IMG/VR virus record: IMGVR_UViG_3300017960_000001
Span: 1-64,000 of that record
DNA: 64,000 nt
From: a virus
Direction: 5' to 3' (one strand)
Below, in pieces: positions 5,567 to 20,310 of this stretch. A model generated the notes under the pieces. That model searched no databases and had not been told where the DNA came from. It worked only from the letters and a program-made list of their open reading frames with translations. Each line of letters starts with the position of its first letter. Position 1 is the first letter of the stretch. Made by a program: the position numbers and the translations under genes.

Positions 5567-5785
5567 GTGGGCCGATCACCACGGGCCCGGGCCGAGCACC
5601 TCGGCGGTACGAGGATCCGGTACTACTTCCCCTGCGGTCACTACCAAACGATCGACCACGGCAAGGGGCCGGTGGCGAAGCGCATCGGAGAGGCCGGGTG
5701 TCGATTCATCGTCAAGACCTGGGAGCGCGGCGGGGTGACCGCCGACTGCCCGACGTGCGAACGGAAAAGGAAGGGGGCCGCGTGA
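5567..5785 (+). CDS. Small Zn-ribbon protein
   Basis: CGH...CPTC motifs; GTG start just after the upstream stop. Confidence 0.55.
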   Translation: MGRSPRARAEHLGGTRIRYYFPCGHYQTIDHGKGPVAKRIGEAGCRFIVKTWERGGVTADCPTCERKRKGAA

Positions 5786-6561
5786 ACGACTACGAACAAC
5801 GACGGCAGGACCGGATCGATCGGTTGCGGGATCGGGTGAAGCGCAAGCGGGCCGAGTCCGCGGCGCAGCTCGACCGGGCGGGCAAGCTCGGCGACGCGAT
5901 CCCGATGGGGCAACCGATCCTCGTCGGCCACCACTCTCAACGCCGGCACGAACGGGACCTCGACCGGATCCAGAACGCGACCCGCCGCGGGGTGGACGCC
6001 GCCCGCGAGGCTGACGACCTCGAACGCCGGGCTCAGGCTGCCGAGAATAGCACCGCGATCAGTAGCGACGACCCCAACGCCCTCGTCGAGTTGCGGGCGA
6101 AGGTGGCGCGCTTGGAGGCTCGACGCGAGGACATGAAACGGACCAACCGGGAGTGGAGGCGGGGCGGGTGGGATGCCGTGTCCGGGTTGGACGACGACCA
6201 GAAAACCAAGATCAAGGAAACCCTCGCCCGGGTCGGCCGCGGCGACGGGCCGCCGTTCGCACCCTACCAGCTGACGAACCTCGGCGGGCGCATCCGACAG
6301 GCGAAAGCTCGTATCGTCCAGATGGAGACGCAACGGGCGATCCCGAGTAGCGAGTCCGAGGTCGGCGACGTGCGGATCGTGGACAACGCCGACGCGAACC
6401 GGGTGCAGCTGTTCCTGCCGGGGCGCCCGGGCCCGGACCTGAAAACGAGACTGAAGCGGAGCGGGTGGCGGTGGTCGCCGTCGCGGGGTTGCTGGCAACG
6501 CCACCGATCCACGGCCGCGCTGAACCAAGCACAAGCCCTCGCTGGCGCCTATTCCGATTGA
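5782..6561 (+). CDS. DUF3560-like protein
   Basis: IPMGQPILVGHHS, AISSDDPNA and GWRWSPSRGCWQR motifs recognised from this family. Confidence 0.8.
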   Translation: MNDYEQRRQDRIDRLRDRVKRKRAESAAQLDRAGKLGDAIPMGQPILVGHHSQRRHERDLDRIQNATRRGVDAAREADDLERRAQAAENSTAISSDDPNALVELRAKVARLEARREDMKRTNREWRRGGWDAVSGLDDDQKTKIKETLARVGRGDGPPFAPYQLTNLGGRIRQAKARIVQMETQRAIPSSESEVGDVRIVDNADANRVQLFLPGRPGPDLKTRLKRSGWRWSPSRGCWQRHRSTAALNQAQALAGAYSD

Positions 6562-6595
6562 TGGGGATGGACACACCAACCGATAGGAGGACCGG

Positions 6596-7354
6596 ATGCA
6601 GCTGGAACTGGAACGGCCGCTCGTCGTTTTCGATTTGGAAACGACCGGCGCCGACGTGAACAACGACAAGATCGTGGAGCTTGCGGCGGTGAAGCTCTCG
6701 CCGGGAGGCGGGCGGGACCAGCTTGTGCAGCGGTTCAACCCGGGCCGACGGATCCCGCCGGACGTGGTAGCGATCCACGGCATCACCAACGCCGACGTGA
6801 AGGACTGCCCTCTCTTCAGGGAGGAGGCCGCCCGGGTGCACCGGTTCTTCAAGGGGGCCGACCTCGGCGGGTTCAACGCGGACCGGTTCGACATCCCGCT
6901 CCTACAGAACGAGCTATTGCGAGCGGGCCTGAGCCTCGACCTGACCGTCTGCATTGTCGACGCATGCCGGATATACCACCAACGCGAGCCCCGGGACCTC
7001 GCGGCCGCGGTGCGGTTCTACACGGGCGGCGAGCACGTCCACCACCACGCCGCCCTCGCTGACGTCGAGGCTACGTTGGATGTGTTGCGCGGCCAGCTCG
7101 AGCAATACGCCGACCTGCCCCGCTCGGTGCAGGGGATCCACGACGCGACCCGCGACCCGGACGCGGTCGACTTCGCGGGCAAGCTGCGATGGGAGGGGGA
7201 CGCGGTGGTGCTGACCTTCGGCAAGCACAAGGGGACCCCGTTGCAACGGGTCGATCAAGGCTATCTCATCTGGGCGAAGCGTAACGGGGTGTTCGGGCCG
7301 GACGTGGTGCCGGTGATCAATTCCGCGCTCGAAGGCAGATACCCGAAACGCTAG
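6596..7354 (+). CDS. DEDDh 3'-5' exonuclease (DNA Pol III epsilon / ExoX-like)
   Basis: FDLETTG, GFNADRFD, HAALADV motifs; C-terminal FGKHKG..YLIW domain. Confidence 0.9.
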   Translation: MQLELERPLVVFDLETTGADVNNDKIVELAAVKLSPGGGRDQLVQRFNPGRRIPPDVVAIHGITNADVKDCPLFREEAARVHRFFKGADLGGFNADRFDIPLLQNELLRAGLSLDLTVCIVDACRIYHQREPRDLAAAVRFYTGGEHVHHHAALADVEATLDVLRGQLEQYADLPRSVQGIHDATRDPDAVDFAGKLRWEGDAVVLTFGKHKGTPLQRVDQGYLIWAKRNGVFGPDVVPVINSALEGRYPKR

Positions 7355-8534: not shown

Positions 8535-9062
8535 ATGGAGGGCAAGATGCTCGAACTGAAATGGACGGACAACGGCGGATCGAGTCACACGGGGACCGCG
8601 GCGCGCGTCACGGTCGAAGCGTACAAGGATCCCGAGGGCTGGCACGCCGACGTGATCGTCACCGACGGCAGGACCGAGGACAAGTGGCCGAAATGGATCT
8701 ACGGGTTCAAGTCTCTCCGCGCGGTCAAGGATCACTGCGGCGCCGCGCTCCCGTCGACCCTCGGCGAGGACGACGTCCCGACCGACGGCGGCGTGGACGA
8801 GATGGGAGACGTTGCGAGCGGCACCTCGAACCCGCCCCCGACGTCACCGGCCGAGAACGCCGGCGGCCCGTCCGGGCTGGCTCTCACCGGCGCCGACGAG
8901 GTCACCGCCACGATGGCAGACGGGACGAAGATCCACATCGCCCTCTCTCCCAGCGGCGGCGAGCTTATCGTCGCCACCCGCCCGGGTAGCGCGACCGGCC
9001 TAGCGCTGTACCCTTCGCCGTCGTTCCGCACCCTTCGCCTGAAGCCGACGCGCGACTGCTAG
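8535..9062 (+). CDS. Hypothetical protein (likely start 8547)
   Basis: GGAGG between the two ATGs. Confidence 0.65.
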   Translation: MEGKMLELKWTDNGGSSHTGTAARVTVEAYKDPEGWHADVIVTDGRTEDKWPKWIYGFKSLRAVKDHCGAALPSTLGEDDVPTDGGVDEMGDVASGTSNPPPTSPAENAGGPSGLALTGADEVTATMADGTKIHIALSPSGGELIVATRPGSATGLALYPSPSFRTLRLKPTRDC

Positions 9063-9103
9063 CTCGCGCCGTCCTCTCTCCCCCGCGCCAAGCCCGGCCT
9101 AAA

Positions 9104-9206
9104 GAAAAAACGACAGCCACTCGCTTATTTTTGTTGACACGACCGGCGAGGCATGCAATACTGAGGCATGATGAACGGACACAACAACACAACGGAGGAC
9201 ACAATG
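9104..9206 (+). promoter_or_regulatory. Conserved promoter/leader module, copy 5
   Basis: TTGACA 9134, 17 nt, AATACT 9157, ATGATGAAC 9168, GGAGG, ATG 9204. Confidence 0.8.
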
Positions 9207-9911
9207 ACCGACGCCAATAGCAACACCAACGCCGCCGACAACAAGCTGGTAACCGCGGAACTGTACCGCTACGGATGGGGACGCAACAACATCGCCGACG
9301 AGCACCGCGACGCCGAGAAAAAGCGGAAGGCCGCCGTCGACACCATGCGGAAGCTGGCGAAGGCGGCCGACCTGCTCAAGACCATCGGCCACGACATCGA
9401 CGACGACCCCACGCCCGACGGCATGGACCACAACGAGTCGATGAAGGTTGCCCGGGCGATCGACAACCTCCGCTCCACGTTGGGCGACATGGAGAACCGT
9501 TGCGCCGGCACCGCCCCGGTCGTGGTGAAGCGCATCGACCGGAAGGTCCGTTGCCGGGTGTGGCGGAAGCGGGGCACCTACGGACGCGGCGCCGAAATCA
9601 AGGCCGCCGTGCTCGCCATCGTCGGCGACCGCGCTCTGGTCAGCTGGAACGAGTCCAACAAGCACGGCAAGGCGGACCGCTACTTCGTAGAGGTTCCGGC
9701 GCTCTACGACGTGTCCTCCTACGACGCCGACGACGCCAAATATGAGTTGTCCGTGTCCGTCACCGACAAGGATTGCGCCGCGTGGATCGAAACCGAATGG
9801 ACCTACCGCGCCAAGTCCACCCGCCGCCTCCCCGACGTGTGGCTGCACGCCGTCCCGACCCGGACCAAGAAATCGATCGCCGACCTCCGCGCCGCGTCCG
9901 ACAACAACTAG
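9168..9911 (+). CDS. Hypothetical protein (alternative start 9204)
   Basis: Follows module 5. Confidence 0.75.
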   Translation: MMNGHNNTTEDTMTDANSNTNAADNKLVTAELYRYGWGRNNIADEHRDAEKKRKAAVDTMRKLAKAADLLKTIGHDIDDDPTPDGMDHNESMKVARAIDNLRSTLGDMENRCAGTAPVVVKRIDRKVRCRVWRKRGTYGRGAEIKAAVLAIVGDRALVSWNESNKHGKADRYFVEVPALYDVSSYDADDAKYELSVSVTDKDCAAWIETEWTYRAKSTRRLPDVWLHAVPTRTKKSIADLRAASDNN

Positions 9912-9970
9912 CCCGACGCCGGCGCCCGCCGGCACCGCCCCCCCCCCGACACCGACTAACCGCACAACGT

Positions 9971-9999
9971 TTGACGCGACCGCCCGCCGGCGGTAGGAT
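9971..9999 (+). promoter_or_regulatory. Sigma70-like promoter lacking the conserved module flanks
   Basis: TTGACG, 17 nt, TAGGAT upstream of SD-ATG 10034. Confidence 0.6.
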
Positions 10000-10033
10000 G
10001 GACCAAGAAGCTGACCCCAACGTGGAGGGAACC

Positions 10034-10354
10034 ATGCCGGCAAAGAAGAAGGACGGGCCCGCCGAGGTCTACGTTTCCAAGTTCGCGCTGACCCGCGGGA
10101 TCGAGAAATACAAAGGCGAGGTCACCAACTCAGGCGAGGGTTTCAAGTTCCAACCGGACTGGGCCAACCGCGAGTTGTTCGTGCTCAAACCGGATTGGTC
10201 GACGACGAAGAAGGCCGCGGTCGCCAACGCCGAGGACCTTCGCAAAGAGGCCCTCGCCAATCTCGCCGACCAGCTGAAAAGGGTGGGCGACAACCCGGCC
10301 CGGGTAGAGATGATCAAGGCCAAGCAGAAAGAAATCAAAGGTCTGAAGTTCTAA
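10034..10354 (+). CDS. Hypothetical basic protein
   Basis: GGAGG SD before MPAKKKDG. Confidence 0.7.
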   Translation: MPAKKKDGPAEVYVSKFALTRGIEKYKGEVTNSGEGFKFQPDWANRELFVLKPDWSTTKKAAVANAEDLRKEALANLADQLKRVGDNPARVEMIKAKQKEIKGLKF

Positions 10355-10405
10355 CCGCCCGCCCCCAACCTCTCGGGGCGACGGCATCGCCAGGAAGGGG
10401 ACCCC

Positions 10406-10654
10406 ATGAAGAAGGAAAGCTGCCCGCGTTGCGGCGACGAGCTACGGGTCGAACACGCGGACAACCACCCCGGCGCAGACTACGGCAAGAAGGAATCAGT
10501 CTTTCTGCTCCGGGTCCGGTGCCGCGACCGGTCCCGCGGCCCGTCTCGGTGCTATGGGTACTTCGCCGAGGCGGTCGGTCGTAGCAGGTCGGACGCGGTC
10601 CACCGGCTGCGGCTCGGCCTCGAACGGGAACGCAAGCGGAGGGCTGCGGCGTGA
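10406..10654 (+). CDS. Small Zn-ribbon protein
   Basis: CPRCG...C...C; overlaps next start. Confidence 0.6.
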   Translation: MKKESCPRCGDELRVEHADNHPGADYGKKESVFLLRVRCRDRSRGPSRCYGYFAEAVGRSRSDAVHRLRLGLERERKRRAAA

Positions 10655-11232
10655 CCCCGGCCGACCAACGGATCGCCGACCTGCGCGACGGCATCCGGGC
10701 CGAGGCTGAGGCCCTACGGGATCGGGCGGTGAAGCTCGACGAGGCGGCCGACCACCTCGACGTCGCTCTCACGATCGCGGTCGACGATACGACCGCACAC
10801 TTACCCGAACCGAAACCGAAGCCGGAACCGACGGCCGGGGGCAAGCGAAAGCGTACCAGACGCAGCAAGAGCCCCGCCTCCCGCCGCACCTCTCCCGCGA
10901 CCGAAGCCCCGGGCAAGAAGAAGAAGCCGCAAGGCGGGCACGCTGGCGTCACTCAGCTAGCGATCCTCGCGCACCTCGGCGATTGCGTCGGAGCGTGGAG
11001 GCGGCCGGCTGACATCGGCCGGGCAATCGACCGGCCCGGGGCGCTCGTCGCCGGGGCCCTGCGCCGGATGCACAACCGGGGCGAACCGCGGTTGCAGCTG
11101 CAACGGCTCGGACCCCGGTCTTGCCAGTACCGGCTGGCCCCGGAGGGAGAGGAGTCGGACCCCGACCCGGAGCCGGAGGCGGTGCCCCCCCCATCGGGCG
11201 CCGCCGAAACGAAACCGAGGGCCACGGCCTGA
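10651..11232 (+). CDS. Putative winged-helix DNA-binding protein
   Basis: Coiled-coil N-terminus, basic linker, wHTH-like AILAHL..RPADIGRAI..VAGALRRM..YRL. Confidence 0.5.
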   Translation: MTPADQRIADLRDGIRAEAEALRDRAVKLDEAADHLDVALTIAVDDTTAHLPEPKPKPEPTAGGKRKRTRRSKSPASRRTSPATEAPGKKKKPQGGHAGVTQLAILAHLGDCVGAWRRPADIGRAIDRPGALVAGALRRMHNRGEPRLQLQRLGPRSCQYRLAPEGEESDPDPEPEAVPPPSGAAETKPRATA

Positions 11233-11305
11233 GGACGTCGACCCCGACGGCACCCGCACCACCGACGAACTCCCCAAGCCCGGCCGAACGGGACGACACC
11301 CGGCG

Positions 11306-11626
11306 GTGACGGGGTTCAGTGTGAGCGGGCCGCCAGCTGGCTCTGAGGCGAGGCGGACGCGGGGCCGGGCGCCGACACCCGACGCCGACATCGCGGCGAA
11401 ACTTGAGGATCTGGGACGTACTGTGTTGGACATGAACAAGGGGGCGTGGCACACGGCGGCGAGTCTGCTCGACGGAGCCGAGGCCCGGGGGTTGATCCCG
11501 GCGGGGTTCGCCGACGCATACCACCGCAAGCTCGAGGGGGCACTGGACGCCGCGGCCGACGCGGGTAGAATCGAACGAGAGTCAGATAACGAGGGGCACC
11601 GGATTCTATACCGGGTCCCGGCATAG
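11306..11626 (+). CDS. Hypothetical protein, possible winged helix
   Basis: ORF fills the gap on the coding strand; start uncertain. Confidence 0.45.
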   Translation: MTGFSVSGPPAGSEARRTRGRAPTPDADIAAKLEDLGRTVLDMNKGAWHTAASLLDGAEARGLIPAGFADAYHRKLEGALDAAADAGRIERESDNEGHRILYRVPA

Positions 11627-11635
11627 GAGGACACC

Positions 11636-12433
11636 GTGGCAGCTGGAAGCGGCAAGGCTAAGAGAAGCGGTAGCAAGAAACCTGCGAAGAAGAAGGTGGC
11701 GAAAAAGAAGCCGGCCGGCAAGGCGCCGGCGGCGAAGGGTGACGCCCCGATCCTCGCAGACGAGATCCCGGTGTTCTGCGCTCACGACGAGGTGGTGGCG
11801 ACGTCCTCGCTCGTCCCGAATCCTCGCAACCCGAACACACATCCCGACGTGCAGATCGACCTGCTCTCGAAGGTGATCCTGAATCAAGGCTGGCGGGCGC
11901 CGATCACGGTGTCGACCCGGTCCGGGTTCGTGGTCCGCGGACACGGCCGGCTCGCGGCCGCGATCAGGCTCAACGCCGAGTTGGTACCGATCGATCGGCA
12001 GGACTACGCCGACGAAGCGAGCGAGTGGGCCGACCTCGTCGCCGACAACCGGATCGCCGAGCTTGCCGAGATGGACGCGCCGGCGCTGAAGGATCTGCTC
12101 GTCGAGATGGACACCGGCGCCTTCGACATGGACCTGACCGGGTTCGATGCGACGGCGATGGAGGACCTCATGACCATGACCGAGCCCGGGTTCGGCGAGC
12201 CCTACGGTGGGACGTCGACGGGGCAGGACGGGCAGGGGGTCACGTCGCCGTGGGCCGCGGTCGGATCGCGGGACACCGTCGCGGTGAAGATCGGGCTGGT
12301 CGAGACGTCCCTGCCCGGGGCGTTGGTGAAACAGCTGGGCGACTACATGGAGGGCAAGCGGGCGGACGTCGGGCACCGCTACCACGAAACGCTTGAGAAC
12401 GTGGTGCGCGCCGGGCTGGAGAACGTCGAATGA
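11636..12433 (+). CDS. ParB/Srx-like N-terminal domain protein
   Basis: LVPNPRNPNTH..QI..L..GWRAPI..VRGHGRLAAA..LVADNRIAELA..LTGFD, the ParB-like domain usually fused to phage DNA methylases. Confidence 0.88.
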   Translation: MAAGSGKAKRSGSKKPAKKKVAKKKPAGKAPAAKGDAPILADEIPVFCAHDEVVATSSLVPNPRNPNTHPDVQIDLLSKVILNQGWRAPITVSTRSGFVVRGHGRLAAAIRLNAELVPIDRQDYADEASEWADLVADNRIAELAEMDAPALKDLLVEMDTGAFDMDLTGFDATAMEDLMTMTEPGFGEPYGGTSTGQDGQGVTSPWAAVGSRDTVAVKIGLVETSLPGALVKQLGDYMEGKRADVGHRYHETLENVVRAGLENVE

Positions 12434-13731
12434 AGATCGGAATCGTCGACACGAACTACCCGAAACAAGAGCACCAAGGGCTCGCGGCTACGTGGCTCAG
12501 GTGGGAACTCGATCAGGCGGTGGCCCGCGGCGCCGCCGTCGAGCTGGTCGAGCCGCAGGGCGCCGAAGTCCTGCTCCTCACGACGTCGTCACCCGAGGGG
12601 GTGGCGATGGTGCGGCGCGCGATCAAGGAACACTGGAACGAGACTGCGGTCCGTATCCTCGGCGGTGGCGGGTGCACGTCGCCGCCGGTGTTCGACGATC
12701 TGGTCGAGGCGATCTGCGTCGGCGAGGGTGCACACTTTGTCCGTACACTTTTCAACGACGGACTCGACGCCGCACTAGCTCTCCCCGAGACGTGGATCCC
12801 GGGCGACGATCGGAGGGTCGTCCCCAACCTTGACTTCCCTTGGGAACTGCCTCCGCTACGCCACCCCGACGGGACGATCCGGGTGTTCGGATCGCGGGGC
12901 TGCAAGAATCGCTGCTTGTTCTGTCAGACCGGGTGGGCCAGCACCTACCGGGTCAACCCCCGGCCGAAGATCCTGCAAGCTCAGGTCGACAAGCTGCACC
13001 GGGACGGACACCGGATCGCGGTGATCACGAACGACGGCGCCGAGGCGGGCGTGCACCTCGAGGGCCAGCAGTCTTTCGTGTCCGCGATGTTCACGCACCT
13101 CAAACGCATGATGCCGATCTCTCGGAAGCGTTTCCGGTCGGTGCGGATCGGAGTCGAGGGGGTGTCCGAGCGGATCCGGCGGGCGGTACACAAGCCGGTC
13201 GGCAACGAGGAACTCCTCCGCATGACCTGGGACTTGCTCGTCGCCGGTGTCGGTGTGCGGTGGTTCTTTGTCACCGGCCTACCCGCCGAGACTCTCGACG
13301 ACTACCTCGAATTGCAGCACGTCCTACACCAACTGCGGAAACTTCCGAAGGGCGTGGTCATGATGAACTTCCACGCCTATATTCCTTGCCCCGCCACCCC
13401 GCTCTGCATTCCCCCGCTCGACGACACCTATTTCGAGAGGTATGACGAGCTGATCAAGGATTGGTTTTTCTCCGGGCCGGGGTTCACCCGGCACGTTCAG
13501 CTGGTCGGGCCGGCTAAGTACCCGACACGCTTGAAGAAAGCACGCGAGTCCATGGCGGCGAGCGCGGCCGAACTCCGGCGCGGGTGGTGGAACCACGATC
13601 CGAAGTCGTGGCGGATCGAATTCCCGGGCCACCCGGACAATCTCCGCAGGCTGGCTGCTCGCTACCTCAAACGGATGGGGGCCCCGTACCCGCCCGGGAT
13701 CTTGAAGGATGCCAGCGACGGCGACGAATAG
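12430..13731 (+). CDS. B12-binding-domain radical SAM enzyme
   Basis: SRGCKNRCLFC (CxxxCxxC); N-terminal Rossmann-like ILGGGGCTSP..ICVGEG; GVEGVSERIR, GLPAET and PCPATPL core motifs. Confidence 0.88.
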   Translation: MKIGIVDTNYPKQEHQGLAATWLRWELDQAVARGAAVELVEPQGAEVLLLTTSSPEGVAMVRRAIKEHWNETAVRILGGGGCTSPPVFDDLVEAICVGEGAHFVRTLFNDGLDAALALPETWIPGDDRRVVPNLDFPWELPPLRHPDGTIRVFGSRGCKNRCLFCQTGWASTYRVNPRPKILQAQVDKLHRDGHRIAVITNDGAEAGVHLEGQQSFVSAMFTHLKRMMPISRKRFRSVRIGVEGVSERIRRAVHKPVGNEELLRMTWDLLVAGVGVRWFFVTGLPAETLDDYLELQHVLHQLRKLPKGVVMMNFHAYIPCPATPLCIPPLDDTYFERYDELIKDWFFSGPGFTRHVQLVGPAKYPTRLKKARESMAASAAELRRGWWNHDPKSWRIEFPGHPDNLRRLAARYLKRMGAPYPPGILKDASDGDE

Positions 13732-15277
13732 CTCGAGCGGGGCGACGCACCCCGACTACCGGGAACCCGTGCGGCATCTGCCGCAGGTCGACCCGCACCG
13801 CTACATCGTGTCCGAATCGCCGCGGCACCGAGCCCGGCGGGTCAGCCTGTACCGTTCGCTCTGTATCCGGCGGGCGCGGGAGGATTTCGCGGCGTTCTGC
13901 GAGTACGCGATGCGCGACCGCAAATCTGGCGAGCCGTTCGAGATCCAGTGGTTCCACCAAGAGTGGATCGACGCCCTCGGCGACCCCGACCACCCGCAAA
14001 CTCTGATCGTCGCTCCGCGGTCGCACGGCAAGACCGAGCTTGCGGTGGTGGCGCGGGTGGTCTGGGAGTTGGGACGCAACCCGAACCTGATAATCAAGAT
14101 CGTGTGCGAGGACGACAGCCTCTCGCACAAAAGATTAAAGGCGATCCGGCGCCACATCGAGCACAATCCGAAAGTCAAAGAGGTTTTCCCGAACCTCCGG
14201 CCGGACCGGACAGAGGCGTGGGCCTCGACGCAGCTGTTCGTCGAGCGGGAGATCATCGACAAGGATCCGTCGGTCGAGGCGAAGGGGATCTTCTCCGGGT
14301 CGACCGGCTCGCGGTGCGACCTACTGATCGCCGACGACGTGTGCGGAAAACGGAACGCGCTGCTCGTCCCGTCCAACCGGGCGAAGGTGAAGCTCAGCTT
14401 CTACGAGGATTGGCTCAACCTCTGCGATCCCGATTCCCGGGTGTGGTACATCTGCACCCTCTGGCACAAGGACGACCTGTCCCACGAACTGATGAAGTCC
14501 TCGGAGTGGAACGTCCTATTCTACGCCGTCGGCAAGAACTACGAATCGATCTGGCCGGACCGGTGGCCGGCGTGGGCCCTGCGTGCCCGGGCGGCGACCA
14601 TCGGATCGACTGCCTTCGCTCGCGGGTACCACAACGTATGCCGCGCCGACGAGGATCTAATCGTCCGCGAGGAGTGGCTCAGGTACATCGACCTCGAGGT
14701 GCTACCGCCGGCGCAGGAGTTGGTGTTCTTCACCAGCTACGACACCGCGAAATCGACACAACCCGGCGCCGACTACACGGCCGAGGTGGTGGTCGCTGTC
14801 CACGAACCGACCGAGCGGATCTACGTGGTCGACGCCCGGCACGGGAGAGTCTCGCGGGCCGAACAGTCAGAGTGGGTGTGGCGATCGTTCGGTAGGTTCA
14901 AGCCGTTCAAGATTCTGATCGAGGACATCGGCGCCGACCTCGCGGCGTGGGTCGAGCACGACCACCCGAAGCTCATAGGCAAGGTCGAGGCGATCAAACC
15001 GACCATCGGCAAGGAACACCGGCTGCTCGCGGTGACCCCTTTCCTCGAACGCGGCGAGGTGTTTTTCTCGTCGCGGCTCAACCCCGACGATCCAAGGTTC
15101 CGCGCCGGCCGCGGCTCTCTGATCGGAGAGCTGCTCGACTTCCCGGTCGGCGAGCATGACGACTTGGTCGACGCTTTCTCACAGGCTCTCGACGGCGCCC
15201 GGTTCTACTTGCTTGACCATTGGACCGGGCGGAATGCTACACTGGCTGCGTCGATCACCAACCTCGGCGAGGAGTAA
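13709..15277 (+). CDS. terL: Terminase large subunit
   Basis: Walker A APRSHGKT, Walker B LLIADD, nuclease SYDTA..DYTA and FP.GEHDDLVDA. Confidence 0.95.
   Translation: MPATATNSSSGATHPDYREPVRHLPQVDPHRYIVSESPRHRARRVSLYRSLCIRRAREDFAAFCEYAMRDRKSGEPFEIQWFHQEWIDALGDPDHPQTLIVAPRSHGKTELAVVARVVWELGRNPNLIIKIVCEDDSLSHKRLKAIRRHIEHNPKVKEVFPNLRPDRTEAWASTQLFVEREIIDKDPSVEAKGIFSGSTGSRCDLLIADDVCGKRNALLVPSNRAKVKLSFYEDWLNLCDPDSRVWYICTLWHKDDLSHELMKSSEWNVLFYAVGKNYESIWPDRWPAWALRARAATIGSTAFARGYHNVCRADEDLIVREEWLRYIDLEVLPPAQELVFFTSYDTAKSTQPGADYTAEVVVAVHEPTERIYVVDARHGRVSRAEQSEWVWRSFGRFKPFKILIEDIGADLAAWVEHDHPKLIGKVEAIKPTIGKEHRLLAVTPFLERGEVFFSSRLNPDDPRFRAGRGSLIGELLDFPVGEHDDLVDAFSQALDGARFYLLDHWTGRNATLAASITNLGEE
15213..15243 (+). 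promoter_or_regulatory. Possible extended -10 promoter for the portal operon
   Basis: TTGACC, 19 nt, TACACT preceded by TGn, inside the terL 3' end. Confidence 0.3.
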
Positions 15278-15280
15278 TCC

Positions 15281-17212
15281 ATGACCCGATCGCACAACGA
15301 CGAACCGGCGGCCGACGAGGCCCTCGACGAACTGCACAAAACCGAGGACGAGCGGGTCCTCGATCTGCTTGCGAAGGTGGACGTCGCCGGCGGTGATTCC
15401 CCCGATACGCTCACCGCCCTACGGACGATCCGGCGCCACTATGAGGTGTGGGAACAGGCGAAAGCTGAGAAGCCCCCCTACGACCCGGGCACCTTGTTGA
15501 AGCTCACCGAGGCGTCGAGCTTGCTCCGGCAGTGTTTCGACGCGATGGTGATGGGAGTCTGGGGCCACGGTTACCAAATCGTTCCGGTGATCGACACCAC
15601 CGACGAGGACATCGACGCGCAGATCGAGCGGGCGATCATCCTCGAACGTGAGGCCGAGGCCGCCGACGAGGCCGACGCCCTGCGCGATAGCGGCGAGGCC
15701 GACGAAGCAGAGAGTGCGGCGGCCGACGTGGACTACACCGTCACCGAGACAGAGATCAAGGAACGCCGCGACCAGCTGGAACGCCAGATCGCATCGCAAA
15801 CGTTCAAGGCTCAGCAATGGTTCAAGGAAGCTTCGGTCGATCAATCGTTCCTCGAGCTGTGTCAATGGATGGGGTGGGACCGCGAGGCGATCGGACACGG
15901 TGCCTGGGAGTTCGCCCGGGATTCTCGCGGTCGGTTGCGGGTGGTCGGGTACGTGCCCGGGCACACGGTCTACCCGTTGGCCGACGCGAGCCACTACGTC
16001 GACGTCGAGGGACAGCAGAGAGTCTCTCCGATCAAGTCCCGGCCCTACACCTACCGCCGCAAGTTCAGCCGCTACGTTCAGGTGATTGGCACCCGCAAGC
16101 TCTACTTCAAGGAGTTGGGCGATCCGCGGATCGTGTCGGGGCAAACCGGCAAGGTATACGCGGACGTCCTGACCCCGAAGGGCAAGGTCAAGATCACCGC
16201 CGAGGAACTGTTCCAGAAGAAGGAACCGGAGGCGCCGCGGGCGAACGAGATGATCTACTTCCCGATCCACTCTCCGCGATCGACCGCGGGGATCCCTCGG
16301 TACGTCGGCAACCTGCCGAACATCCTCGGCCAACGCGCCGCGGAGGAAACAACCTGGCTCTACTTCGATAACAAGTCGGTGCCGGTCGGGGCGTGGGTTA
16401 TCCTCGGCGGGACGTTGCACGACAACGTGAAGAAGCAGATCCGCGACGTCACCCGCGACCAGCTGAAAGGGGTGAAGGGATTCCACCGCGCGATGATTAT
16501 CGAGGTGGCCGCGCCCCCGACCCGCGGCGGTTCTGGCTCGGCCGAGAAGCCCGAGGTGAAGTGGATCGACCTCATGGGGGCGAACCGGTCCGAGGCGGGC
16601 TGGATCAAGTACGGCAAGGACAACCGGGACAAGGTCGGCGCGTCGTTCAGGCTCCCGCCGTTGCTACGGGGAGAGGCGCCGCAGGATCTGACCCGGGCGA
16701 ATAGCTACGCCTCGATGGAGATGGCGGACACGCAGGTTTTCTCTGCCGAGCGTATGGCGTTCGATTGGACCATGACCCGGCGCGTGCTGGCCGACCTCGG
16801 CTGCGACCTCGTCGAGTTCAAGCTGAACAGCCCGGTCACCACCGACCCGGAGGTCCAAGCGAAAGCAACCGACGTGTTCGCCAAGCACGGCGGCATGCTA
16901 CCGAACGACGTCAGGAAGATCGCCGCCCGGACTCTCAACCTCGAACTGGACAGCGTCGACGCCGATTGGGCGACGGTGCCTCTGTCCATGGCGCTGGCCG
17001 GGTTCGCCGCGCCGGCCGATGGCGAGCCGCAGGACCCGGACGAAACCACGGTGAAGCTCGCGTGGATCGAGGACATCCTCGGCGACCTGCTCGAACAACG
17101 CGGGTTGCAGGTGGTGGCCGTCGAATCGGTCGAGTCCCAGCCCGAGCAGGTCGACGGCGTGACCCTGCCCCACGACGCACCGATCAACGGCGACGAGCGA
17201 GACGAGGACTAG
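15281..17212 (+). CDS. Portal protein (PBSX/HK97-like)
   Basis: Follows terL; IGHGAWEFARD, ANEMIYF, GIPRY, YFDNKSVP and FRLPPLLRG motifs. Confidence 0.9.
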   Translation: MTRSHNDEPAADEALDELHKTEDERVLDLLAKVDVAGGDSPDTLTALRTIRRHYEVWEQAKAEKPPYDPGTLLKLTEASSLLRQCFDAMVMGVWGHGYQIVPVIDTTDEDIDAQIERAIILEREAEAADEADALRDSGEADEAESAAADVDYTVTETEIKERRDQLERQIASQTFKAQQWFKEASVDQSFLELCQWMGWDREAIGHGAWEFARDSRGRLRVVGYVPGHTVYPLADASHYVDVEGQQRVSPIKSRPYTYRRKFSRYVQVIGTRKLYFKELGDPRIVSGQTGKVYADVLTPKGKVKITAEELFQKKEPEAPRANEMIYFPIHSPRSTAGIPRYVGNLPNILGQRAAEETTWLYFDNKSVPVGAWVILGGTLHDNVKKQIRDVTRDQLKGVKGFHRAMIIEVAAPPTRGGSGSAEKPEVKWIDLMGANRSEAGWIKYGKDNRDKVGASFRLPPLLRGEAPQDLTRANSYASMEMADTQVFSAERMAFDWTMTRRVLADLGCDLVEFKLNSPVTTDPEVQAKATDVFAKHGGMLPNDVRKIAARTLNLELDSVDADWATVPLSMALAGFAAPADGEPQDPDETTVKLAWIEDILGDLLEQRGLQVVAVESVESQPEQVDGVTLPHDAPINGDERDED

Positions 17213-18006: not shown

Positions 18007-20310
18007 ATGTGCGGGGTGTGCGAGAGGGAGCGCGCCACGGCGGCCCCAACGTGGGCCAGCCTCTGGCCGGTCCGCGACCTCGGCACTCACCGCGAGGCGG
18101 CGTTGGCGAAGGCGGGCGTGTCCCGGTTGCGGCCGCGGGCGGCGTCCGGGTTCGCGGTGCTAGTCCGGGGCAAGCCTCAGAGGTTGAGGGCCACCGCCCG
18201 GCCGGACGCGATCTTCGAGGTGGTCGCTCGGATGCCGGCGCACCCCGGCGCCGTCGCCGATCTGTACGAGGCCGAGGCGGTCGGACGCGGTGACCGGATC
18301 GTGTGGCGCTGGATCGAGCGGGTGACCCTACCCGCCGAGACGCAGCTGGTGAAGGCAGCGCAAGCTCCACAGCAGCTTCTGGACATTATCTCGACACAGC
18401 TGGCCGGGCAATTGAAACGGGTCGACCGAGGGTGGAGCAAGCCTCTCCTCCGGCGGTACCTGCAAAACCTCGACATCAATTGGGGACAGGCCACGGGCGC
18501 CGACATCGACCGCGCCTTCGCCTCGGCCGATCGGGTGTTCCGTCGGGCCAAGGTCGTGCGGTTGGCGACCCCGTGGGTCAGGCGGGTCGAGGCTCGGGCT
18601 GGCGAGATCGGTCGCCGCTCTCGGGAGTTCGTCCGCGAATCCTTCTCGCCGAGGATCGCACCGGGGTTCAGCCAACCCGACCGCCGGGCGATCGGACAGA
18701 TCGGCCAGCAACAAGGCTGGTGGCTACGAGACGAGGTCGGGCGCCGGGCCGACGGGCTCACTACCCGCGGCCGACGCATCGTGGAGGAAGGGCTCAAGCG
18801 AGGCGAAGGACGGTACGCGATCGGGCGCCAGCTGCGCGAACAATTGCCCGGCATGTACCAGATCCGATCGGGTAATTACGCGGTGGTGTCAGCCTCGGTG
18901 GCGATGCAACGCGCCCGGAACTTCTCGCACGTGTCCGGCTACCGGGATGCCGGGTTCGAGTTCATGGAGGTTTCGAACCCCGTCGACGAGCGGACCACCG
19001 AAATCTGCCGGTTCATGGACGGACAGATCATCAACGTGAATCAGGCTTACGATCTATCGATGGACGCCTCGATGGTCGCAACTCCCGAGGACATTAAGAA
19101 GGTCAATCCCTTTATGCGGACGGTGAACGAGCGGGGCCGCCGGTACATCGAGACTGCGCGCGGTACCCGGATGGCAGAGATCACCCGATCCGGCATGGGG
19201 ACGAGGGACGACGCCGGGCAACACCGACAGATGCTCTCCTCGAAGCAGTTCCCGCAGGTCGCCGCGGTCGGGCCGCCACCGTACCACCACCTTTGCAGAT
19301 CGATCACCGTGCCGGTGTCCGGGTTGATGCAGGTTCCGCGGGGCACCATGCCGATCGCGTTGCCGATGCGTCCACCGACGCCACCGAAACCACCACCGGC
19401 CGCGCCGGGCAAGCCGGTCGCCGGTCTACCTCGAGCGGCGGTCGACCGGACCCTCATGGAGCCGGCGACGCCGAGGGCTCGCGGTGTGGTGCAGTTGAAC
19501 CGGCCGATCGACTTCGTCCGCGAACCGACCCCGGGGCACCCGACCGCGATCGGCTGGGATCCAGACATGGCTCCACCGTTCCGAGACATGGGGGTCGTTC
19601 GCAACGTCCCGCTGAAAACACAGGTCCTCGACCGGGCGAAGTACGAGGTGCGGGTGGTGAACGAGGCGATCGCCAAAGCGCAGGAGGCCAACGGCGGGCG
19701 CGTGCTCTCTCCCAAGGCCCTCGGCGAAACGATTCAGGGTGTGGTCCGAGGGTACGCGGCACCGAAGGCGCCGACCGCCCGCTCGATCAAGGTCGCCCGC
19801 CAGAAAGGGCTGACCGGGCAGCTGGGCCGGCGCGAAGCTCAGCGTCGGTATAGCCGGGCCATGACGTCGCTATCGAGCAGGTTCCAGACCGAGGCCCTCA
19901 AGCGAGACTTCCCGACGATCGCCGTGCGCCCCGGCGCGGGGGAATACACCCCGGCTGCGATTTTCCTACCGGTCGGCGGTTCGGCTGCTCAGGAACGGAT
20001 GCTGATCCGATTGATGACGCACCACCTTGACGGCATCGGTAGCAACGCCGACGCCGCGGCCGCCGTCCGCGAGGCGTTCAAGCTCACGGGCCAGCTGGGC
20101 CGGACGGACGACTACACGATCATCCGGGGGCGGTGGGGGGACGTGACCGCTGGCAAGGTGTACCACGACGACCCGACCCGGACCGACATCACCGCCACGG
20201 CACACGCGGCGACGGTGCCGGCCCTCGCAACGAAGCTCGCGCACCTCTGGGGAGCGAACCCTACTCACATCGGGTTCCTCTTGTCGTGGCTACGGGGGGC
20301 GTTCTTCTAA
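18007..20310 (+). CDS. MuF/SPP1 gp7-like head morphogenesis protein with long C-terminal extension
   Basis: VDERTTEICRFMDG...PPPYHHLCRS; position after portal. Confidence 0.85.
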   Translation: MCGVCERERATAAPTWASLWPVRDLGTHREAALAKAGVSRLRPRAASGFAVLVRGKPQRLRATARPDAIFEVVARMPAHPGAVADLYEAEAVGRGDRIVWRWIERVTLPAETQLVKAAQAPQQLLDIISTQLAGQLKRVDRGWSKPLLRRYLQNLDINWGQATGADIDRAFASADRVFRRAKVVRLATPWVRRVEARAGEIGRRSREFVRESFSPRIAPGFSQPDRRAIGQIGQQQGWWLRDEVGRRADGLTTRGRRIVEEGLKRGEGRYAIGRQLREQLPGMYQIRSGNYAVVSASVAMQRARNFSHVSGYRDAGFEFMEVSNPVDERTTEICRFMDGQIINVNQAYDLSMDASMVATPEDIKKVNPFMRTVNERGRRYIETARGTRMAEITRSGMGTRDDAGQHRQMLSSKQFPQVAAVGPPPYHHLCRSITVPVSGLMQVPRGTMPIALPMRPPTPPKPPPAAPGKPVAGLPRAAVDRTLMEPATPRARGVVQLNRPIDFVREPTPGHPTAIGWDPDMAPPFRDMGVVRNVPLKTQVLDRAKYEVRVVNEAIAKAQEANGGRVLSPKALGETIQGVVRGYAAPKAPTARSIKVARQKGLTGQLGRREAQRRYSRAMTSLSSRFQTEALKRDFPTIAVRPGAGEYTPAAIFLPVGGSAAQERMLIRLMTHHLDGIGSNADAAAAVREAFKLTGQLGRTDDYTIIRGRWGDVTAGKVYHDDPTRTDITATAHAATVPALATKLAHLWGANPTHIGFLLSWLRGAFF

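Follow-up and report, generated by a model that had tools for sequence, protein, structure and literature searches.

Gene content of the locus

Here we describe a pair of genes, encoding a ParB-like protein and a radical S-adenosylmethionine (rSAM) enzyme, which might constitute a two-gene DNA-modification module and lies directly upstream of the gene for the terminase large subunit (TerL; gene terL) in an uncultivated phage (IMG/VR record IMGVR_UViG_3300017960_000001). The window, that is, the whole 64,000-nucleotide stretch analysed, comprises positions 1-64000 of this viral record, which is 94,119 bp long, complete and bears direct terminal repeats; its GC content is ~66%, and the + strand carries nearly all genes. 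The locus region is present in sediment and seawater metagenome sequencing runs from seven studies, and no RNA dataset is among the runs that carry it.

The three genes are overlapping open reading frames (ORFs) on the + strand (Table 1), an arrangement that an earlier note on this DNA, made from the sequence alone, had described and that we confirmed throughout. Specifically, the stop codon of the ParB-like gene overlaps the start of the rSAM gene in an ATGA at 12430-12433, and the stop codon of the rSAM gene (TAG, 13729-13731) lies 23 nt inside terL, which begins with the ATG at 13709; this start is supported by TerL relatives, which align from residue 1-11. The GC content at third codon positions is 0.83-0.88 in the three ORFs (0.88 in the ParB-like gene), compared with 0.65-0.67 in antisense ORFs, and thus all three are real coding frames. 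The assignment as TerL, a protein with ATPase and RNaseH-like nuclease domains, is supported by matches to phrog_38 (covering residues 42-497), NF033889 and TIGR01630, and by the portal gene downstream.

Table 1. Features of the ParB-like/rSAM locus (window coordinates; AF2, AlphaFold2; pLDDT, predicted local distance difference test; pI, isoelectric point)
Feature	Position	Strand	Evidence and remarks
AGGAGG ribosome-binding site	11625..11630	+	Read in sequence; 5 nt upstream of the GTG start codon (11636)
ParB-like adaptor gene, 265 aa	11636..12433	+	ORF, GTG start; ParB-like PHROG matches 1.9e-36 to 1e-15; AF2 pLDDT 84
ParB/CTPase-fold nucleotide-binding domain, residues 40-145	11753..12070	+	pLDDT >95; Box II-like G-H-G-R motif
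Acidic helical linker, residues 148-180	12077..12175	+	AF2 secondary structure; phrog_498 coverage reaches residue 183
Conserved flexible loop, residues 186-206	12191..12253	+	Alignments; pLDDT <50 at residues 190-203
Small alpha/beta C-terminal domain (beta-hairpin and two helices)	12254..12430	+	AF2 model; accompanies rSAM
Radical SAM enzyme gene, 433 aa, pI 8.8	12430..13731	+	ORF; PF04055; AF2 pLDDT 92
N-terminal Rossmann-like B12-binding-type domain, residues 1-116	12430..12777	+	Structural alignments from residue 1-2
C-K-N-R-C-L-F-C, CxxxCxxC motif for [4Fe-4S] (C158, C162, C165)	12901..12924	+	Invariant in 27/27 sequences
terL, 522 aa	13709..15277	+	phrog_38 1.7e-81; NF033889 1.4e-25; overlaps rSAM end by 23 nt
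Portal protein gene (context)	15281..17212	+	phrog_12 2.5e-17; syntenic in relatives

The best profile match of the ParB-like protein is phrog_498, the ParB part of ParB-methyltransferases (E = 1.9e-36; protein residues 41-183, profile positions 25-168), and a ParB-like PHROG family was also matched at 3.6e-29. In Foldseek comparisons, the nucleotide-binding domain (NBD) matched the N-domains of ParB, Noc and KorB (best E 1.9e-5, ~139 columns, root mean square deviation (rmsd) 3-4 Å), with PadC, SerK and Srx as further fold matches; its G-H-G-R motif (residues 102-105; G102 invariant) corresponds to the family consensus D-G-H-x-R. The PHROG profiles and the fold thus identify a ParB N-domain, whereas Pfam PF02195 had no match to this protein at E 0.1 and none in the genome at E 0.01; the NBDs of relatives (54-60% identical) score 17-19 bits for PF02195, against a cut-off of 26.3. 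The protein is not a canonical partition ParB (TIGR00180, 14.2 bits against a cut-off of 58.45), and its AF2 model consists of the NBD, the helical linker, the loop and the small alpha/beta domain, with no helix-turn-helix (HTH) DNA-binding domain in evidence. It is acidic except for a Lys-rich N-terminal tail (residues 1-35). This histone-H1-like tail of ~35 residues, rich in Lys, Ala and Pro (window 11636-11740), is shared with L007 and L028 (the loci compared with the window are designated by L numbers) and missing in most family members; it may provide a non-specific DNA binding that the ParB-like protein otherwise lacks.

The second protein belongs to the radical SAM superfamily, as indicated by the CxxxCxxC motif, a PF04055 score of 36.7 bits (gathering cut-off 29.5; 27/27 family members match) and a partial TIM-barrel fold, and all Foldseek and VIA-align structural matches of its model are rSAM enzymes. 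The N-terminal domain contains two invariant motifs, GG (78-79) and GEG (98-100), and the structural alignments to MgmA, TsrM, CysS, OxsB, TokK and AprD4 begin at residue 1-2, so that the architecture is, at the level of the fold, that of class B rSAM enzymes with an N-terminal Rossmann-like B12-binding domain. Among the sequence profiles, PF02310 matches 8/27 family members (best 5.6e-6; the window protein is not among them), PF19864 matches 10/27, and TIGR04013 aligns with residues 30-184 at 2.1e-9; the NCBIfam matches are all to families combining B12-binding and radical SAM domains, with scores far below the family cut-offs. The best structural match is MgmA (PDB 9ccb; Z 23.1, rmsd 3.5 Å, 347 residues), and the next, at Z 12-18, are CysS, MtaB, MiaB, RimO, AprD4, TsrM, OxsB and TokK. 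The auxiliary-cluster cysteines of methylthiotransferases are missing, C96 being the only nearly invariant cysteine outside the CxxxCxxC motif, and the scores for the MiaB, RimO and MtaB families (TIGR01125 and TIGR00089, 13-15 bits) stay below the cut-offs of 251-357. Members of the rSAM family are basic throughout (median pI 9.4), and the ParB-like partner is acidic (4.65). A complex prediction for the enzyme and ParB-like residues 170-265 gave a score of 0.01, which counts neither for nor against binding.

The earlier note had read the two genes as a ParB-like domain of the type that in phages is normally fused or adjacent to DNA methyltransferases, joined by a B12-binding-domain CxxxCxxC enzyme in place of a Rossmann methyltransferase. 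The phrog_498 match bears out the first part of this assignment, and the fold, the PF04055 match and the invariant cysteines support the second; likewise, neither PF01555 nor PF00145 has a match in the complete 94-kb genome. The same genome contains no second rSAM gene and no match to ThyA or TAGT; Tet_JBP gave no match either, in this genome or in the control genomes.

Conservation and genomic context of the gene pair

To survey gene neighbourhoods of homologues, the check that the earlier note had proposed, we compared 18 IMG/VR loci and four contigs of metagenome-assembled genomes (MAGs) drawn from IMG/VR and GTDB. The linkage proved strict: the ParB-like gene abuts or overlaps the start of the rSAM gene in all 17 of the 17 homologous loci that include upstream DNA, and these two are the only genes common to the surveyed loci. 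The TerL genes, located 0-3 genes downstream of the pair and followed by the portal gene, belong to at least three PHROG families (phrog_2, phrog_9 and phrog_38), and the pair thus moves between unrelated phages as a unit. Between rSAM and TerL, L017 carries a gene for the terminase small subunit (TerS; PF05119, 1.3e-29), L007 an exonuclease gene, L010 a canonical ParB-methyltransferase fusion directly after the pair, and other loci various unassigned genes. The overlap of the rSAM gene with terL is therefore a local feature, and the conserved unit consists of the ParB-like and rSAM genes. The packaging coupling suggested by the earlier note is accordingly not supported, the overlap being peculiar to the phage in the window.

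The 165 relatives of the rSAM enzyme (42-60% identity) are nearly all metagenomic. A tblastn search of 50,697 deposited phage genomes with the rSAM protein returned no match, and the sole blastn match of the region was to a methyltransferase of a Faecalibacterium phage, in its ParB part. Among 185,579 prokaryotic species genomes, one for each species, there were four close relatives, all on MAG contigs (three of 2.5-2.7 kb and one of 30 kb), together with one distant match. The nearest Atlas clusters are 84-100% viral. A low-oxygen habitat is compatible with the sediment metagenomes, which are no evidence for it.

This distribution bears on an alternative in which the enzyme would act on RNA (tRNA or rRNA) or, as the product of an auxiliary metabolic gene, on a small molecule, with the ParB-fold partner supplying or sensing a nucleotide. 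Such a role would agree with the likeness to MiaB, MtaB, RimO, AprD4, OxsB, CysS and TokK (Z 12-18), with the basic charge of the enzyme and with the inclusion of small-molecule kinases in the ParB/Srx fold, SerK and Srx being among the fold matches of the NBD. However, the family is essentially limited to viral contigs, with few MAG contigs among the species genomes, and no conserved biosynthetic neighbours recur across the surveyed loci; the three auxiliary-cluster cysteines of methylthiotransferases are missing, and every NCBIfam score falls well short of its cut-off. We consider this alternative improbable.

In phages with a TerL 42-49% identical to that of the window phage, the same position is organised as a ParB-like gene, one or more variable genes, and TerL. 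The ParB-like genes of phages with the closest TerL encode an NBD 54-63% identical to that in the window, and the closest of these relatives (63%) lack the rSAM gene. In L027, L028 and L046, nothing separates the ParB-like gene from TerL; in L029, the slot is occupied by an AAA/ABC-like ATPase gene and, in L042, by several ParB paralogues. L035 encodes a TET-associated DNA glycosyltransferase in the slot (PF20691 1.7e-43; phrog_842), and two further loci carry ParB-like/rSAM pairs before TerL: L030:2517-4993 with a distant homologue of the B12 type and an ATGA overlap of its own (hhalign 98.5%, E 2e-15), and L032:2057-4996 with an rSAM gene of different build (N-terminal CxxxCxxC, CGYQCAYC at residue 34), followed by a gene for a 317-aa protein of no assigned function. 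With the ParB-methyltransferase fusion of L010 and the glycosyltransferase of L035 in this position, the general statement of the earlier note that ParB- and terminase-linked loci often encode base-modifying enzymes is supported. In L035:2290-4961, the order is ParB-like gene (NBD 54% identical), glycosyltransferase, an ORF with no family match, which might encode a divergent dioxygenase, and then TerL. The L030 enzyme is 23% identical to that of the window phage, with CRFRCPFC at residue 178 and a pI of 9.5, and the L032 enzyme is also basic (pI 9.2); a phmmer search of the PDB with both gave no usable match, and we do not call the L032 enzyme similar to spore photoproduct lyase (SPL).

Given this position, the pair could alternatively belong to the packaging machinery, with the ParB-like protein serving as a TerS-like or nuclease accessory that recognises or cuts the packaging site, while the rSAM protein would be a regulatory or redox-sensing accessory of the terminase. 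The pair stands immediately before terL or terS in each locus long enough to show it, its rSAM gene overlaps terL in the window phage, and the closest relatives have the ParB-like gene directly before TerL with no enzyme (L028); yet TerL families vary while the pair stays constant, whereas packaging specificity factors normally co-evolve with TerL, and the slot in relatives contains DNA glycosyltransferase and methyltransferase genes. Although the window has no recognisable TerS gene adjoining terL, a bona fide TerS gene stands between rSAM and TerL in L017. A merely structural role is also unlikely for an Fe-S enzyme of 433 aa whose catalytic motif is invariant. We hold a packaging function to be slightly less probable than one in RNA or small-molecule chemistry. 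A simple replacement of TerS by the ParB-like protein was considered and rejected because L017 has a true TerS gene after the pair. A repeat search over positions 9000-16000 yielded high-GC noise only, with no parS- or pac-like array; the ORF at 607-1293 has no PHROG match and a sub-threshold HTH_3 match (E 0.007), and its identity as TerS is neither confirmed nor excluded.

Across loci, the pairwise identities of the rSAM enzyme correlate with those of the C-terminal part of the ParB-like protein (Spearman rho 0.79, Mantel p 0.0005) and are uncorrelated with those of the NBD (rho -0.05), which indicates that the C-terminal part stays with the enzyme whereas the NBD is swapped; part of the correlation stems from physical adjacency. 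However, in the closest relatives of the NBD (63% identity over residues 17-185), the C-terminal part and the rSAM gene are both missing. A profile search of 1.84 billion proteins with the C-terminal region retrieved 81 representative clusters, nearly all of them proteins of 85-265 aa with the region at the C-terminal end, and when the C-terminal region of the window protein itself served as query in a word-based search, the self-match was the only result.

Within this private C-terminal part lies the loop motif TSTDRDGQGVSSTW, with the family consensus G-D-T-S-T-D-R-D-G-Q-G-V-S-S-T-W (in the window, Y-G-G-T-S-T-G-Q-D-G-Q-G-V-T-S-P-W) and a nearly invariant W206. The motif is maintained at the peptide level, given that synonymous sites vary freely between loci. 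Such a loop could itself be the target of the enzyme: in this alternative, the rSAM protein would modify a protein, either the ParB-like loop, where the Gln, Asp or Trp of T-S-T-D-R-D-G-Q-G-V-S-S-T-W might for example be C-methylated, or else a protein of the packaging machinery or the virion, as MgmA and RimO modify residues in protein loops. MgmA is by far the closest structure (Z 23.1 over 347 residues, and of similar size), and the loop is under selection as a peptide and strongly conserved yet disordered, as enzyme substrates often are. The loop-bearing part also co-varies with the enzyme, although the rSAM gene lies right next to the C-terminal part, a proximity that could account for this by itself. 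On the other hand, the loop Gln is missing in the divergent members L016 and L018, and the distant rSAM enzyme of L030 is paired with a ParB-like protein that lacks the motif; the basic enzyme would suit a nucleic-acid substrate, though it would attract an acidic protein, too. An identical motif (T-S-T-D-R-D-G-Q-G-V-S-S..W) is furthermore present in L067 on a contig with no rSAM gene, which argues against the loop as a mere enzyme substrate. We regard protein modification as unlikely, albeit less so than the two preceding alternatives. For a virion protein as the target, which the earlier note had offered as an option, we found no support other than the likeness to MgmA.

The L067 protein (L067:813-1934, minus strand; IMGVR_UViG_3300010340_000903) is a 373-aa fusion of a ParB NBD, the loop motif and DUF4417 (PF14386, 5e-29), encoded on a 4.5-kb contig with a second ParB-like gene upstream and an HTH (TerS-like) gene downstream. 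Because Mycobacterium phage DirkDirk has a stand-alone DUF4417 protein without the motif, we rejected an assignment of the motif to DUF4417.

Several neighbouring genes recur in related loci. About 5 kb upstream of the pair, the window (5698-7354) carries a primase-like gene (phrog_6744, phrog_19458) and a gene for a DNA polymerase exonuclease subunit (phrog_192, 3.7e-45), and it is the phrog_192 family that stands between rSAM and TerL in L007, L008 and L014. In the same three loci, homologues of a 767-aa window protein (18007-20310; phrog_13868 2e-40, with weak matches to head-morphogenesis/minor-head, MuF-like proteins) follow the portal gene. In addition, the TerL ORFs of L042 (3564-6341), L043, L048 (4445-7279) and L049 are 925-944 aa long and are split by tblastn into two blocks ~1.1-1.2 kb apart, which looks like an intein or another in-frame insertion.

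A possible ParB-activated DNA-modification module

By analogy with the ParB-dependent phage thymine dioxygenases, the pair can be interpreted as a ParB-activated radical SAM module that modifies DNA, a reading to which we assign a probability of roughly one half. In its favour stand the strict linkage and mobility of the pair, the co-variation of the C-terminal part with the enzyme, the homology of the NBD to ParB-methyltransferase fusions, the DNA-modifying enzymes in the slot of relatives, the basic enzyme beside an acidic partner, and the thymine dioxygenase precedent; DNA as the substrate, activation by ParB and the kind of chemistry are inferred from these observations. The ParB-like and rSAM genes would then form a self-contained, horizontally mobile module acting on DNA after replication, in which the ParB-like protein would be the cognate activator or DNA-loading partner and the basic B12-domain-type enzyme would be the catalyst, its reaction on a base or sugar carbon being most plausibly a C-alkylation (methylation) or a radical conversion of another type. 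A site just upstream of terS or terL is usual for phage DNA-modification cassettes and does not demonstrate a mechanical link to packaging. With no PF01555, PF00145, ThyA or TAGT match in the genome, the module would act alone on canonical DNA. In a more specific and tentative form of this proposal, which we rate well below even odds, a ParB-loaded, cobalamin-dependent rSAM enzyme would install a previously unknown C-alkyl group (e.g. C-methyl) on an unactivated carbon of double-stranded DNA.

Several observations weigh against a module of this kind. The closest solved structure is that of a protein methylase, MgmA (Z 23.1, compared with ~18 for the next match), and no DNA-binding domain is apparent in the model of the ParB-like protein. 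In the closest relatives, the ParB-like gene is retained with no adjoining enzyme, and hence the ParB-like protein must also have a function independent of rSAM. AprD4 works without cobalamin despite sharing the fold; it is among the structural matches (Z 17.6), and cobalamin binding is therefore not implied by the fold of the window enzyme. Finally, we found no report of a cobalamin-type rSAM enzyme acting on DNA in the literature, where the sole phage rSAM enzyme shown to install a DNA modification is M6 gp53.

If correct, the more specific proposal of a cobalamin-dependent C-alkylation would provide the first class B rSAM enzyme acting on DNA and the second enzyme superfamily that needs a ParB-type activator. 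ParB activation of phage DNA-modifying enzymes has been demonstrated only recently and for one class, the thymine dioxygenases; if a further class of enzymes, unrelated to these, is bound so strictly to a ParB-like partner, such activation would become a general principle. A B12-type rSAM enzyme could, moreover, alkylate unactivated carbon on DNA, which is beyond the known DNA-modifying enzymes. Modified DNA in phages is a driving force of the arms race with restriction and CRISPR systems and has been a source of biotechnology tools, and because the module consists of only two genes, it is directly testable by co-expression.

Comparison with known systems

Among rSAM enzymes, those of the TIGR03960 type share the type of N-terminal domain (Radical_SAM_N2, PF19864), and an Atlas comparison with a bacterial TIGR03960 cluster gave a structural TM of 0.80; the nearest Atlas clusters in feature space are viral rSAM proteins. 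However, the window protein scores 27.9 bits against the TIGR03960 cut-off of 462 and lacks the DUF2344 fusion. With MgmA (QCMT), the B12-dependent rSAM glutamine C-methyltransferase of methyl-coenzyme M reductase, which acts on McrA and possesses a large cleft for peptides (PMC11796369), it shares the Rossmann-like domain, the partial TIM barrel, the C-terminal domain and a similar length. The identity to MgmA is nevertheless 17%, and the TIGR04014 score is 24.8 bits against a cut-off of 360; furthermore, MgmA is archaeal and acts on McrA, whereas the family described here is viral and linked to ParB. A precedent for rSAM chemistry on phage DNA is M6 gp53 (Lee et al., NAR 2021, PMC8989533), a radical SAM isomerase that takes part in thymidine hypermodification and acts on post-replicative DNA. 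Unlike the window enzyme, it is SPL-like, lacks a B12-type domain and belongs to a multi-enzyme pathway for 5-hydroxymethyl-2'-deoxyuridine, whereas the window phage has no ThyA-like or TAGT match and the module comprises two genes only.

On the ParB side, the phage ParB-DNA methyltransferase fusions (PHROG 498; ParB-CTPase fold and N6_N4_MTase) have an N-terminal ParB domain and linker homologous to those of the window protein and the same genomic position before the terminase, and in L010 both systems stand side by side. Here, in contrast, the methyltransferase domain is replaced by ~80 residues comprising the loop and the small domain, and by an rSAM gene that is separate but translationally coupled. 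In a 2025 survey of ParB-CTPase fusions (bioRxiv 10.1101/2025.10.10.680097), the phage partners named are DUF3850, DUF4417 and methyltransferases, and radical SAM enzymes do not appear; our literature search likewise found no paper that combines ParB, CTPase and radical SAM.

The closest parallel comes from phage thymine dioxygenases, one subclass of which requires a cognate ParB-like activator for action on double-stranded DNA (O'Toole et al., PNAS 2026, PMC13229309). These activators consist of an NBD and a C-terminal domain, with no obvious DNA-binding domain, and terminases are among the commonest neighbours of the ParB-dependent enzymes, co-occurring with them in 19% of contigs (PMC13229309). 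Like the 5mYOX/ParB pairs, the pair described here combines a stand-alone ParB-like protein of this architecture with an adjoining enzyme, often near the terminase, a correspondence seen in the structural model, in the strict adjacency of the genes and in the co-variation of the C-terminal part with the rSAM enzyme, which parallels the cognate specificity of the 5mYOX/ParB pairs. The differences are that a radical SAM protein takes the place of the Fe(II)/2-oxoglutarate enzyme, which in 5mYOX is a 5-methylpyrimidine dioxygenase, and that the C-terminal part with its conserved loop forms a separate small family. Thus, ParB-partnered phage enzymes that modify nucleic acids are known, whereas a partner of this enzyme class, the private C-terminal adaptor together with the loop motif, and any chemistry resulting from their action are without previous description.

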